Shown here piece after piece: positions 53,237 to 58,432 of a stretch of 64,000 bases of DNA. Under the pieces are notes generated by a model. It saw only the letters and a program-made list of their open reading frames with translations. It was not told the origin of the DNA and did no database searches. The DNA is from Myxococcales bacterium (GTDB lineage Bacteria; Myxococcota; Kuafuiibacteriia; Kuafuiibacteriales; Kuafuiibacteriaceae). Position numbers and translations under genes: made by a program. Position 1 is the first letter of the stretch. Every line of letters starts with the position of its first letter. Location: assembly GCA_019634385.1 (NCBI GenBank), contig JAHQVK010000050.1, positions 20,072 to 84,071 on the forward strand. The letters run 5' to 3'.

Positions 53237-53347
53237 CAACAGAAATCACTTGGGTTGAACCCAAGCGCCTGCTTTTACGCCGGGCTATGCCCCGCTGCGC
53301 GACCACTTGTTGATTCTTATAGAATCAATTCAAGTGGTCTTTGCTGT
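53237..53347 (-). repeat. MITE-like structured repeat, copy C (full length, reverse orientation)
   Basis: Reverse complement reads tACAGCAAAGaccacttgaattgattctataagaatcaa...cgcagcggggcatagccc...cttgggttcaacccaagtgatTTCTGTTGTg. Confidence 0.8.
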
Positions 53348-53470
53348 TATAAGTCGAGATGGTCACTAAAGTAGTGAAGCGCTGCGGAATTAATCCACAA
53401 CGCTCCACCTTGGAGTCACAACGCACTATGTGAAACTCAAGTACTTAATATCTTCACGTAGCTTCGAAAC

Positions 53471-55285
53471 TCACAGTGGAGGATATGCATTCTCCATTAG
53501 TTCCTCAAACTGCGCTTCGAACCAAGCGCCGGAAATAGGGGCATTTGGCAGAGCATTTGTCGTAGTGAACCCACTTCGTGCATTCCCACCATAAGTCGGG
53601 TCGCACATCCGGTCGAAACCTTTGCCGTCCTCGTTAGGAATCAGTGACGACGAGCCATCAGATTCACCCGGTGGTTTGATCCAAACGAATGCATCAAATC
53701 CAGGCGCTGGACTTGCCTGGGGACGCTCACCCATGCCAGCCCCAGACTGGTTACACCAATTACCCGCATGCGTTCGACGATCTATACGCCGGCCTTCAAC
53801 ACTACCTCCATCGCCTGAGGGTCGACTAGAACCACCCCAACCATTGCGGCTTGTATCTATCAGCATACCAATATCACTTGGCATCCCTCTGCTTACCAAT
53901 TCGTTGCGAAAATCGAATGCAAAAGTCAATTCATCAGCATACATATTCCAGTCAAGCCACGGCGACTGACGGTCCGCAAGCGACAAGGGGAAACTTATAT
54001 ATGGTTCCTCAAGCGCAGAATAGTTGGCTGTATTGGTAATAAATCCTGCCAGTCCGGCCCCATTAGTTTGACTGTAACTCACTACATTAGCCAAAAGCTC
54101 CGCGGCCGGGCCGAAGTTGGTATCCCATCCGATCCAACCATGATGTGCTGCATCGATATAAGAATAGACATTTGGGATATCATAGGCATCTAATGCATAA
54201 GCGATCCCTTCACCATATACACCACCTGGTGCTGAACTTGCTGCCAAGACATCCGAGCAGAGTTGCGTACCTCCGGCTTGGCCACTTGTATTGGTTACCA
54301 AGTTCGGGAGTGAATCAATTTCAAGGACACTAACGATACGAAGTGGAACATATTTAGGATCGCTAATAATATTGGCAATCTCGTCGATATACTCCGACTT
54401 GTAGCGGGGCAATTCGTCAATCCCCAGCTCTCCATTAGAAGCAAGAGCAGCACAATCACGAGCGGGTAGATTGTAGGTTACAAACTGAAACACAAATGGT
54501 CCACCACCCGCCTCTTGCTGCTGCACTAGTGCTTCATCTAGGTGATCTCGGAGCCCCATAGGCCCATTAGACTGGCTATTGGCCGTACCCGCAATAGCTG
54601 CAATTCGGTCCAACCATACTGCCGTAGGCACATTAGAGACCCGGCTACCGCCAGCTACAGACTCTGCCTTAGCGCTCCATTCTGGATTCACATACCAGCC
54701 AGAGACGCCAGAATAAGGATTGTCTTGTCTTGACTCATATTCACCAGGGTCCACCGGCTCAGGCGTAGGCCCGGGCTCAGGCATAGGCTCGGGCTCAGGC
54801 TCAGGCTCAGGCTCAGGCTCAGGCTCAGGCTCAGGCTCAGGCTCAGGCTCAGGCATAGGCTCGGGCTCAGGCACTAGCTGCCCTCCACATGCCACCCCAT
54901 TGATGGCAAAGGACCCCGGAACCGGTGTTGAACTACCGCTTTTCGCCCCAATGAACCCAAGACTGACCGACCCACCCGGTGAAATAGTGCCGTTCCAGGC
55001 CTCGTTCGTTACTCGTACCAACTGACCGGAACCCGACTGAGTAAAGCTACCATTCCATCCCTGAACAACCGATTGTGTTGCAGGCAACGAAAATGTAAGT
55101 TCCCAGCCATTAAATGAGCTGGATCCAGTATTCTGAATAGTTATGTTCCCTTGAAAGCCTGCGCCCCAAGAGCTCACTACGGTGTAATCAACTTCACAAG
55201 AGAGTTGAGCTGATGCCGAAGAGGCGGCAAAACTCATACCTGCTACAGCGATTCCACTGCTGGCCAATCTAAATATATTTTTCAT
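53471..55285 (-). CDS. Secreted cellulase: N-terminal CBM2 cellulose-binding module, Pro/Glu-rich linker, GH6 catalytic domain
   Basis: Signal peptide. CBM2 ([25 protein letters not shown]...NGVAC). (PE)n linker. GH6 blocks including [16 protein letters not shown]. Confidence 0.8.
54754..54880. repeat. Hexanucleotide tandem repeat (ggctca)n encoding the PEPEPE linker
   Basis: Perfect (ggctca) units, at least 11 of them, seen directly. Confidence 0.8.
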
Positions 55286-55666
55286 ATATTTCTATACCTT
55301 CCAAAATTTGCGCATGCCTCTTTGGCTAACGCAGTCCTATAATTGTATACATCTGTAAACTAGCAAATATTGTATCGTTCGCACCACAGAACGCATAGCG
55401 TAAACATGCCCACTAAATGGGCGCATCTGTCGAAGGCACGCGACACAAGAGTATGATGCGTTCTGGCCAAAGCGCAAGACATACTCGCTATGTCCACTAA
55501 GAATGGCAACATCATAGTTACGCATGTCGATTAACGTGTCCTCGGTCTTCACTTTCGAATGCAGAATTGCACAACACATGTGCGTAGAAGAACTCCCGCA
55601 CCCTAAGCGACTGTTGTGGCTCTATCCGTAATTCTCAGTAGTGCCTCAACCAGGTCAATCTCCAGG

Positions 55667-55778
55667 TTAACCATATACAGCAAAGACTCCTTGAATTGAT
55701 TCTGTAAGAATCAACAAGGAGTCGCGCAGCAGGGCATTGCCCCGCTGCGAAGCTGGAACTTGGGTTCAACCCAAGTTC
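55667..55778 (+). repeat. MITE-like structured repeat, copy D (full length)
   Basis: tACAGCAAAGactccttgaattgattctgtaagaatcaacaaggagtcgcgcagcagggcattgccccgctgcg...ggaacttgggttcaacccaagttctTTCTGCTGTa. Confidence 0.85.
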
Positions 55779-56071
55779 TTTCTGCTGTAAAGGTATCGCT
55801 CGGCCTACTCTTCACCTGAGGTATGTCTTTTACGTCGGAGGTGCTCTATGACTCGCCCCCAATTAGCGAAATGTCCGGCGACCTGCGATCCCCCGTCTTG
55901 CTGCTAGCCTCTCCTTCAACTCGCTATGACCAACCTCGATCCGAGTAAAACATTCAGGTAAACCAAGGTATTTCGCAATAGTTCTACGCGGACCTTAAAG
56001 ACACGCCATAGTGAGGAATACTCCTCCATCAGTGATAGAGGAGTATTTGAACCACAAAATTAACCCACCTC

Positions 56072-57727
56072 TTACCGGTAGAGACGATAGATAGTGCCAC
56101 CATCTGTGAGAATATAGATCGATCCGTCTGGAGCTTCGGACAACTCTCGAAAACGAACATTCATATCCTCAAACATTTTGGTTTCGCTGATCACCGCTTC
56201 ACCATCCAACGTAAGACGTGAAATATGTCGCCCTGCCAACGCACCTACGAATAGGTTCCCTTTCCATTCGGGAAACATATTCCCTCGATAAAAAATCATC
56301 CCTGATGGGGCTATAGACGGCGTCCAGTAGTGGATCGGCTCTATGAAACCCTGTCCTGCATGGTCATCCGGAATCTGTTCTCCATTGTAATGGCTTCCAT
56401 AACAAGCTAACGGCCAACCATAGTTTTCACCTGCTCGCGGAATATTAACCTCGTCCCCACCTTGAGGACCATGTTCATGATTCCATATCTTTCCGGTTGT
56501 TGGATGAACAGCCATTCCCTGAATATTGCGATGCCCATAAGACCAGATTTCTGGCCTTGCATTTGCTTGATTCACAAACGGATTATCATTGGGAACCTGA
56601 CCATCAGGATGGATGCGGATGATCGTTCCAAGATGGTTATTGATATTCTGAGCTTGATCATACTCAAAATATTCGCCGAGGCCGATAAATAGATGCCCAT
56701 CCTCGTGGAATGCCAATCGACAGCCATAGTGAAGACCCCCTCCTCCTATTTTGGTGGCAGTAAATATTACCATCCAGTCCTGTAATCGCGCCCCATCAAA
56801 ACGAGCGCGGGCCACCTCCGTTCCCGACTGATTTCCCTCTTCTCCAGCGTAACAAAAGTATACATATTGATCTTGGGCAAAGGTTGGACCAACCAATACA
56901 TCCAGCAGTCCTCCTTGACCTTCCGCCTCAATATTAGGCAATCCGGCTAACGGGGAAGACAGCATGTGGTCGTTACCCAAAAGGCGAAGATTTCCCACCT
57001 TCTCTGTCACTAGAGCGCGACCATCAGGTAAGAAATCCAAGCCCCATGGCCAACTCAGACCATCAACAACCACCGCCATCTGAGGCTCTCCAGTTGGTAC
57101 TGGTTCGGGGACTGGCTCCGGTTCGGGGACTGGCTCCGGTTCAGGGACTGGCTCCGGTTCAGGGACTGGCTCCGGTTCAGGGACTGGCTCCGGTTCGGGG
57201 ACTGGTTCCGGTTCGGGGACTGGCTCCGGTTCGGGGACTGGTTCCGGTTCGGGGACTGGTTCCGGTTCGGGGACTGGTTCCGGTTCGGGGACTGGTTCCG
57301 GTTCGGGGACTGGCTCCGGTTCGGACGCACCGCAGCGCACACCATTGACCACAAACATTGCGGGCACGTTGGATGAGCTGCCATTTGACGCTCCAATAAA
57401 TCCTGGACTAACTGATCCACCGGAAGGAATATTGCTATTCCAAGACTCATGGGTTACAGTGACCATCTGTGATGAACTTGATTGCTCAAACTGTCCCGCC
57501 CACCCCTGAACAATAGATTGGGTCTCAGGCAATAGAAATTCTAACTGCCAATTAGTTATCGCATTAGATCCAGTATTTTTAATAGTTATCTGACCTTGAA
57601 AACCGCTATTCCAAGAGTTCATGATCCTATAATCAACATCACAAGAAACTTGAGCCCACGTCGGCGAGGTAGCAAAGATCATCCCAACCGCCGTCAGTCC
57701 CGTGTGGACTACCCTAAATATATTCAT
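56072..57727 (-). CDS. Secreted CBM2-(EPEPVP)n-PQQ-dependent soluble sugar (aldose) dehydrogenase (GSDH/YliI-like six-bladed propeller)
   Basis: Signal peptide. CBM2 ([25 protein letters not shown]...NGVRC). 20x EPEPVP linker. GSDH blocks [42 protein letters not shown] and [17 protein letters not shown]...[11 protein letters not shown] match the YliI/Asd family. Confidence 0.75.
57098..57325. repeat. 18-bp tandem repeat (ggttcggggactggctcc)n encoding the (EPEPVP)n linker
   Basis: About 12 near-identical units seen directly. They generate spurious repeat ORFs on both strands. Confidence 0.85.
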
Positions 57728-58065
57728 ATAGCTGTACCTTTAATGCTTCGCGTATGCCGTCCTAGAATACGCGGCTACACACTTATTGTATACACTCCTA
57801 AATTCACGGAATATTTGAGACCGCACAATCAGAAGGACTGGTGTAACTTGTTGCGCTCTGTACGGAAACGCAATACATATTGCGCCCATGCGAGCGCCAG
57901 AGTATTCGACATTGCCAACAAACCGCAAGACATGTAGTATTCCTTTTTTCCGACCACCAATGAGGGTACCACCAGGCAGAAGCCCAGGCGGGTTGGCTAG
58001 GGCTCGTTGCTGAAATCGGCAAGGAACTATCGTAAGGGACCTAGTTTGGCTGAATTATTCGGACT

Positions 58066-58122
58066 ACAGCAAAGCCTCCCGGAGAAGCCAGAACTTGGGT
58101 TCAACCAAGGGATTTCTGCTGT
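58066..58122 (+). repeat. MITE-like repeat, copy F (57-bp internally deleted derivative)
   Basis: tACAGCAAAGcctcccggagaagccagaacttgggttcaaccaagggatTTCTGCTGTa. Confidence 0.7.
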
Positions 58123-58321
58123 AGAAGGGAGGCTAGCACTGACTGAGAGCCGTGAAAACCAGCCATTCGAACCAATCCGGAACCGCTGAGAGCCCCGAGG
58201 CCGGACATTCAGGCTAATCCCCAAGACGAGCAATAGACCACGTCCGATGTTAAAGACACACCATTGTCGAGAATCGGTAGTCACTGAACGTGATCTGGAT
58301 CAATATTAAGAAAGACGGCAT

Positions 58322-58432
58322 ACAGCAAAACCACTTGAATTGATTCTGTAAGAATCAACAAGGGGGCGCGCAGCGGGGCATTGCTCCCCAGAGAAACTGG
58401 AACTTGGGTTCAACCCAAGGGATTTCTGCTGT
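58322..58432 (+). repeat. MITE-like structured repeat, copy E (full length)
   Basis: tACAGCAAAAccacttgaattgattctgtaagaatcaacaagggggcgcgcagcggggcattgctcccc...ggaacttgggttcaacccaagggatTTCTGCTGTa. Confidence 0.85.

Follow-up and report, generated by a model that had tools for sequence, protein, structure and literature searches.

What are the short, hairpin-rich repeats that recur between the genes of an uncultured marine myxobacterium, and why do four of the seven copies lie around two genes for CBM2 proteins? The question arises in a 64-kb stretch of a metagenome-assembled genome (MAG) deposited as 'Myxococcales bacterium', hereafter the window, in which one element is present in seven copies, all intergenic: five of about 112 nt and two short ones of 59 and 45 nt. 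We consider it likely that these repeats are copies of a miniature transposable element with inverted repeats (MITE), a non-autonomous DNA transposon of about 112 bp bounded by terminal inverted repeats (TIRs) that are imperfect and about 25 bp long. Most likely, the element represents a new family of a well-known type and no new kind of biology.

A repeat family with inverted ends and three hairpins

The seven copies, designated A to G (Table 1), had been recognized in a first-pass annotation made by eye, and all of them exist by reading of the sites, by BLASTN and by covariance model. BLASTN with copy D as the query recovered every copy and nothing else of note in the window. From the five long copies a covariance model (R1) was constructed; run with filters off, it gave them 96–137 bits (E 3e-25 to 3e-37), as against 27.5 bits for copy F and about 20 for copy G. 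Overall, the full copies score 93–137 bits (E 1e-24 to 1e-37). A second model (R2), which additionally includes the copies of a relative described below, returned the same list, and an eighth copy was detected in the window by neither model. Furthermore, a 17-mer from hairpin 3 is present at six of the seven copies (10 matches, both strands counted), against 0.01 expected from shuffles. Several details of the first-pass annotation had to be corrected. Copy D, placed there at 55667–55778, was about 10 nt off, and the termini tACAGCA/TGCTGTa, said to be common to all copies, were overstated: copy B starts with TAAAGCA and copy C has AACAGCA...TGTTGTG, so that the 7-nt inverted repeat TACAGCA/TGCTGTA is perfect in five copies of the seven. 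One quoted palindrome, cgcagcggggcattgccccgctgcg, is found nowhere in the window, copy D reading cgcagcAgggcattgccccgctgcg instead, and the three palindromes described as perfect in the full-length copies are (near-)perfect only in D, with 44 of 45 Watson-Crick pairs.

Table 1. Copies of the element and associated features. Positions refer to the window unless the relative (ENA ERZ26696514) is named; R1, covariance model; MFE, minimum free energy.
Feature	Position	Strand	Description
Copy A	8860–8970	+	full length, 111 nt; R1 96 bits, E 2.9e-25; fold z = -4.3
Copy B	38295–38408	+	full length; R1 112 bits; degenerate 5' end TAAAGCA
Copy G	39932–39976	+	minimal derivative, 45 nt; 19.8 bits; fold z = -7.0
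Copy C	53235–53348	-	full length; R1 116 bits; both termini degenerate; left edge of CBM2 island
Copy D	55676–55789	+	best preserved; R1 137.5 bits; MFE -63.5 kcal/mol, z = -9.9
Copy F	58065–58123	+	derivative, most likely by internal deletion, 59 nt; 27.5 bits, E 1.8e-05
Copy E	58321–58433	+	full length; R1 107 bits; right edge of CBM2 island
Lineage-specific segment	53188–58451		5.26 kb, Mpl stop to epimerase stop; context, not element
GH6-CBM2	53471–55285	-	Pfam
GSDH-CBM2	56072–57727	-	Pfam
L002 copy (L002a)	4207–4331		relative ERZ26696514
L087 copy (L087a)	12050–12173		relative ERZ26696514
L087 copy	13751–13859		relative ERZ26696514; 3'-truncated

The long copies fold as a 7-bp closing stem (TACAGCA/TGCTGTA) around three hairpins, thereby forming a four-way junction. 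In copy D, the closing stem spans positions 55676–82 and 55783–89, hairpin 1 positions 55685–55723, hairpin 2 positions 55725–55749 and hairpin 3 positions 55755–55779. The three hairpins are palindromes at the DNA level, and the opposite strand of copy D folds equally well (-67.5 kcal/mol, z = -11.6). Among the copies, fold z-scores range from -3 to -9.9 on the plus strand (C: -7.3) and are similar on the other, which gives the family the stable stem-loops by which MITEs are recognized. The inverted repeat extends well beyond the 7 nt of the closing stem. The left end (TACAGCAAAGACCACTTGAATTGA), reading TACAGCA-aAgAcCACTTGaaTTGA, and the right end (TCAACCCAAGTGATTTCTGCTGTA), whose reverse complement reads TACAGCA-gAaAtCACTTGggTTGA, form an imperfect TIR of about 25 nt; a TIR of this length is seen in every full copy and also, with a sequence of its own, in the relative's subfamily. 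Independent repeat finding (family D6) likewise brought the left end of copy C, read in reverse, into the register of the right ends (71% over 31 nt). Hairpin 1 thus consists of the left TIR and an internal complement and hairpin 3 of an internal complement and the right TIR, and the central hairpin 2 is a separate GC-rich palindrome.

With 45–114 nt, no open reading frame (ORF) inside and TIRs at their ends, the repeats have the small, transposase-free build of bacterial MITEs, for which a size under about 200–400 bp has been used as a cut-off (Delihas 2011, PMC3184786), and they are dispersed between genes in multiple copies (seven in 64 kb here, three in 43 kb in the relative). Judged from sequence, imperfect TIRs of about 25 nt together with a 45-nt copy G would also fit the 24–30 bp or so of cis-acting end sequence of IS630/Tc1-mariner elements.

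Most copies lie 16–50 nt past a stop codon: copy G is 44 nt past the MatE stop, copy E 19 nt from the epimerase stop, and copy A begins 47 nt beyond a TPR gene's stop, with 231 nt between its end and the likely start of csrA (9202), so that it may lie in the csrA leader, where the first-pass annotation placed it. The csrA-fliW pair occupies positions 9082–9977; csrA most likely begins with the ATG at 9202, which follows AGGAGGA, and the longest csrA ORF has 40 extra residues outside Pfam coverage.

A subfamily in a related genome, decay and the case for mobility

The window encodes a Mpl ligase (51763–53187) 100% identical to NCBI protein MBX2810928.1, which is encoded on a 159-kb contig, and the best other Mpl matches are 67–68% identical; therefore, there is no close relative to compare. 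The only sampled relative of similar GC content is ENA ERZ26696514, a 6.05-Mb contig (GC 0.53) sampled as two stretches, L002 and L087, of 43 kb in all, whose orthologous proteins are 45–81% identical to those of the window (Mpl 67%, an Fe-S protein 81%). This relative carries three copies, all between genes, which form a subfamily of their own. Their termini are of the same type, (T/G)ACAGCAAAGACCA...TTT(C/A)TGCTGTA, and a GGTCGCGCAGCG core is found, as in the window, 47 nt from the right end. The two TIRs have changed together, with TTGAGCTGAG at both ends in L087a vs CTTGRRTTGA at both ends in the window, and hairpin 3 reads GCTTGAGCTCAGCTCAAGC in the relative and CTTGGGTTCAACCCAAG in the window, a difference of two double substitutions that keep the pairing. 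When the two subfamilies were aligned jointly, 79% of the cells paired and 15 pairs showed changes on both sides, values reached by none of 500 shuffles, and in slid registers the pairing fell to 30–47%.

None of the ten copies, seven in the window and three in the relative, occupies an orthologous position. At one gene junction the comparison of an empty with a filled site, which the first-pass annotation had named as a check, could be made. In the window, a Kelch-like gene (44213–46237, minus strand) overlaps its upstream gene by 4 nt (ATGA, 46234–46237), leaving the junction empty, whereas in L002 the same junction is a spacer of about 185 nt filled by the element. There, a 716-aa gene call (2200–4350, minus strand) reads through the element and is homologous to the window protein from residue 65 onwards, which illustrates how the element creates false N-terminal extensions in automatic annotation. 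The Kelch-like gene of the window itself contains four direct repeats (44562–45112) that have diverged from one another, each about 59 nt long and spaced at about 160 nt, presumably Kelch/beta-propeller blades and no mobile element.

Within the window, pairwise identity of the copies is 77–88%. Mismatches that are neither Watson-Crick nor wobble pairs number 6–9 each in A, B, C and E, and these copies lose base pairs without compensating changes. A master copy that transposes while its daughters decay neutrally would give just such a pattern: the structure persists from one genome-specific subfamily to the other and erodes among the copies of a single genome. The two short copies are most likely products of internal deletion: copy F still has its two termini together with hairpin 3 and the 3' half of hairpin 2, and copy G is essentially two TIRs forming one hairpin. 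In the 3' flank past TGCTGTA, copies F and E agree at about 9 of 15 nt (58105–58138 vs 58415–58448), which hints that F arose perhaps by local duplication of E and subsequent internal deletion, not by a separate insertion.

Short-read assembly behaves as multi-copy k-mers, which are expected to break contigs, would predict at three copies. Logan contigs of the source sample break within B, C and E, one (L001) beginning at 38330 and ending at 53305 and another (L003) beginning at 58408; this is only suggestive evidence for a multi-copy sequence. The latter contig ends at 63851, inside a set of tandem 27-nt repeats (63768–63929) in the 5' part of an rpoD-like ORF; RpoD of the relative has 1162 aa.

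Taken together, the extended TIRs, the relative's subfamily at other sites, the filled/empty junction, the deletion derivatives and the decay strengthen the earlier proposal of a non-autonomous, MITE-like element. A transposase encoded elsewhere in the genome would bind both TIRs and move the element in trans into intergenic DNA, and a high copy number throughout the genome would be expected. The enzyme would most likely be of the DDE, IS630/Tc1-mariner type, inserting at TA and duplicating it, because TA is found at the ends of six of seven copies (A, B, D, E, F and G), insertion in that family occurs at TA only, and the sufficiency of short ends in its member ISY100 matches the 45-nt copy G. 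An autonomous partner would bear matching ends, TACAGCAAAGACC..., TACAGCAAAGACCACTTGA... or TACAGCAAAGACCATTTGAGCTGAG..., and a master copy would keep the hairpins that dispersed copies lose by mutation, with internal deletion yielding short copies down to a 45-nt element of two ends. Copies would accumulate where insertion is tolerated, tens of nt past stop codons, as the 16–50-nt distances in a compact genome suggest, and in the long spacers of the probably acquired CBM2 island.

Several observations weigh against this interpretation. The 64 + 3 + 43 kb of sequence read from the window and the relative contain neither a transposase nor an autonomous element whose ends match. TA...TA ends are consistent with a TA target-site duplication and equally with the outermost base pair of the TIR, from which they are indistinguishable because TA is palindromic, and the relative's copies end in TG...CA, GA...TA and TA.... 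Among the seven window copies, no consistent flanking direct repeat was found beyond TA; a 5-nt direct repeat flanks only copy B (38290–38413, TTCCG|TAAAGCA...TGCTGTA|TTCCG), a misfit for TA-only duplication that could be due to chance, at a level of about 1–3% across the copies. The filled/empty comparison holds at the level of the gene junction and is not base-precise, the orthologous proteins of the two genomes being just 45–81% identical. Moreover, the copies are fairly diverged (77–88%) and give no sign of recent activity, and the Logan contig near copy A stops 30 nt short of the copy, not inside it.

The window is otherwise an ordinary chromosomal region by its Pfam content (SpoVR, SbcCD, CsrA-FliW, Der, Era, RNase III, MnmA, HU, SurE, ATP synthase gamma, Mpl, DnaG and many Ser/Thr kinases). 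As the earlier annotation had stated for transposases, the roughly 40 of its ORFs that were scanned against Pfam yielded none, nor did they yield an integrase/recombinase, a RAYT or a Y1/HUH domain. In a public genome-contig collection, a gapped hairpin-1 pattern gave no verified hit among the matches listed and the plain 26-mer consensus gave no match; since both scans were empty, neither the window genome nor a close relative appears to be in that collection. A 27-mer scan of public metagenome contigs and a scan of viral contigs each returned 0 matches. No copies were present in at least 80 distant JGI metagenome loci found via Mpl (at most 51% identity among the matches listed; 0.92 Mb), nor in the higher-GC relatives L084 (GC 0.68), L085 and L086 (0.71), L088 (0.62), L090, L091 and L092.

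The CBM2 island and rival explanations

The concentration of copies around the cellulase locus, noted in the first-pass annotation, is real: four of the seven lie in the spacers and at both edges of a lineage-specific segment, in the order C (minus strand), GH6-CBM2, D, GSDH-CBM2, F, E. The junction between Mpl and the epimerase is a variable spot in this lineage. It is empty in two relatives, with 10 nt between the two stop codons in L002 (11414–11423) and 290 nt at the junction in L085, and it holds a histidine-kinase gene in L084 (11407–13077) and a TonB-like gene in L090 (10175–11767). The GH6-CBM2 protein best matches cellobiohydrolases of Micromonospora and Actinoplanes (55–60% identity over the full length), with no Myxococcota homologue among the matches listed, and its gene was probably acquired horizontally. 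No 100% self-match of this protein was found in the protein collection, though the neighbouring Mpl is present there, and no exact record encoding the GH6 or the GSDH protein was found; possibly, the deposited MAG lists the GH6-CBM2 gene as a pseudogene or has no annotation for it. A compositional case for the island is weak: GC is 0.46–0.50 over most of it, 0.57–0.585 in two linker regions and about 0.51–0.58 in the genes upstream, and the neighbouring epimerase is equally low in GC. The linkers of both CBM2 genes contain tandem 18-nt repeats (54731–54892 and 57059–57364; up to 12 units at 88–94% identity in GSDH), which Pfam labels PARP-like low-complexity, and from these similar repeats it follows that both genes carry the same CBM2-plus-linker module.

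The long spacers between the genes of an inserted lineage-specific island explain the clustering best, with no functional link to cellulase. A more elaborate reading takes its cue from the inverted orientation of C (minus) and E (plus), whose right ends point outward in the geometry of a MITE-bounded composite unit. C and E may then be the inverted ends of a unit that captured both CBM2 genes or delivered them into the Mpl|epimerase junction; however, C has degenerate termini and two further copies lie inside the segment, and we regard such a unit as unlikely. If it did exist, a MITE pair would be a vehicle spreading polysaccharide-degradation genes, here an actinobacterial-type GH6 cellobiohydrolase and a CBM2-GSDH oxidoreductase, in marine Myxococcota, much as in MITE-flanked integrons. 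Copy G was also considered as the insertion junction of fasciclin genes and rejected, since L084 and L090 have fasciclin genes at that position too; these genes were therefore lost in L002.

Because four copies separate and bracket both CBM2 genes in a lineage-specific insertion, and since the elements fold as single strands, one might take them for attC-like recombination sites of a cassette system into which the two genes were inserted one by one. The core-site motif of attC is RYYYAAC...GTTRRRY, whereas the termini here are TACAGCA/TGCTGTA; C (minus strand, downstream of GH6) and D (plus strand, downstream of GSDH) have opposite orientations; A, B, G and the relative's three copies adjoin ordinary housekeeping genes; and with no integrase or other recombinase in the window, we consider this origin very improbable. 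Somewhat better placed, although still improbable, is a repetitive extragenic palindrome (REP)/REPIN-like palindrome or IS200/IS605-type 'PATE', moved as single-stranded DNA by a HUH tyrosine transposase (RAYT/TnpA) that recognizes subterminal hairpins. The copies are indeed extragenic and mostly less than 50 nt past stop codons, hairpins 1 and 3 are similar and subterminal (about 10 nt from each end), and no flanking duplication is consistent beyond TA. In addition, the best fold of L087a is one long REPIN-like hairpin, and the palindromic nature of the hairpins makes inverted and direct likeness of the ends inseparable. However, a true inverted repeat, made up of the outermost 7 nt (TACAGCA/TGCTGTA), lies outside the hairpins, and the unit of about 112 nt has three different hairpins, compared with 20–40 nt in a REP. 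A GTAG-type conserved head is typical of REP units; neither such a head nor a conserved 5' tetra- or pentanucleotide of the kind left by IS200/IS605 is seen here, and the window has no Y1/HUH transposase domain or RAYT.

The first-pass annotation had also thought a small structured RNA family plausible. The strong folds (z = -9.9 in D, -7.3 in C), the stems kept by double substitutions between the subfamilies of two genomes and the position of most copies directly past stop codons would suit a structure acting at the RNA level, either as a small RNA or as a cis-acting 3'-end element (terminator, insulator or mRNA stabiliser), in which the four-way junction would be functional; hairpin 3 and the T-rich tail of copy C even scored as terminator-like. 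However, both strands fold equally well, and the balance of 18 G·U against 15 A·C mismatches favours neither strand. Orientation is mixed, with A, B, G and L087a in sense, D, E and L002a in antisense and C between convergent genes; positions differ between the genomes; and window copies lose pairs instead of compensating. The elements contain no promoter-like site, C is the only terminator-like one, among four in the scanned region, and matches in the promoter and terminator scans were at or below shuffle expectation. No copy matches Rfam, for which (Rfam 15) only a tRNA-Arg reached the gathering threshold in the window and the surroundings of copy D gave just one 9.5-bit noise match at E <= 10. 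The claim of an RNA family was thus not upheld, and we judge an RNA-level function to be quite improbable, even more so than transposition as single-stranded DNA, although the repeats may passively influence termination or the stability of mRNA. A tRNA-like or SINE-like (short interspersed element) origin was likewise discarded, as ARAGORN and Rfam find only the real tRNA-Arg and the hairpin-3 GGTTCAACC is not in T-arm register.

Relation to known mobile elements

The element matters in several practical respects: it breaks short-read assemblies of these MAGs, and its copies mark variable regions, among them the probably acquired cellulase island. The joint change of both TIRs and the stems, seen when the subfamilies of the two genomes are compared, is a clean example of its kind, and views on how such elements work are left unchanged. 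Bacterial MITEs have been called the least-studied mobile elements (PMC10969869), and a full-text literature search returned no description of a MITE family in Myxococcota or myxobacteria.

Among characterized systems, REPINs and the REP-RAYT system are palindromic repeats, short and extragenic, whose families evolve within a genome (PMC3116915, PMC2817692). The present element differs in having true TIRs and three distinct hairpins, in lacking a REP-type head and in the absence of a RAYT from the window. In the IMU-integron (Poirel 2009), two inverted MITE copies bracket the cargo, and the unit as a whole is mobilizable in trans (PMC3184786). Copies C (minus) and E (plus) bracket the 5.2-kb CBM2 segment in the same inverted orientation; here, however, the termini of C are degenerate and two copies lie inside, and movement of the C-to-E unit is hypothetical.

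A likeness in size, in deletion classes and in location beside genes is found in the Correia elements (CREE/NEMIS) of Neisseria, MITEs of about 104–157 bp that form full-length and internally deleted classes and are abundant next to genes (PMC3184786). The Correia elements differ in possessing an IHF site, functional promoters and RNase III processing, whereas the present elements are without promoter-like sites. Correia elements show a TA duplication. With regard to the ends themselves, the comparison is with ISY100, which inserts only at TA, duplicates it, has 24-bp imperfect inverted repeats and needs no more than 30 bp per end (PMC2170065). The present element matches this with imperfect TIRs about 25 bp long, with TA at either end and with a copy (G) of just 45 nt, about two ends' worth, so that by anatomy it may belong to the IS630/Tc1-mariner group.

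RUP of Streptococcus pneumoniae is a 107-bp, non-coding, intergenic repeat with TIRs and flanking duplications, which underwent past bursts followed by decay (PMC3184786). It shares with the element of about 112 bp described here the size, the TIRs, the non-coding nature and the intergenic dispersal. The two differ in that they show no sequence similarity and belong to different phyla, and in that each TIR of the present element has an internal complement, which results in the three-hairpin, four-way junction; for the latter element, we infer both the cognate insertion sequence and the TA duplication. Oggioni and Claverys are said to have proposed in 1999 that RUP is moved by an IS630-family transposase with duplication of TA, the same mechanism as the one that we propose for the myxobacterial repeats.

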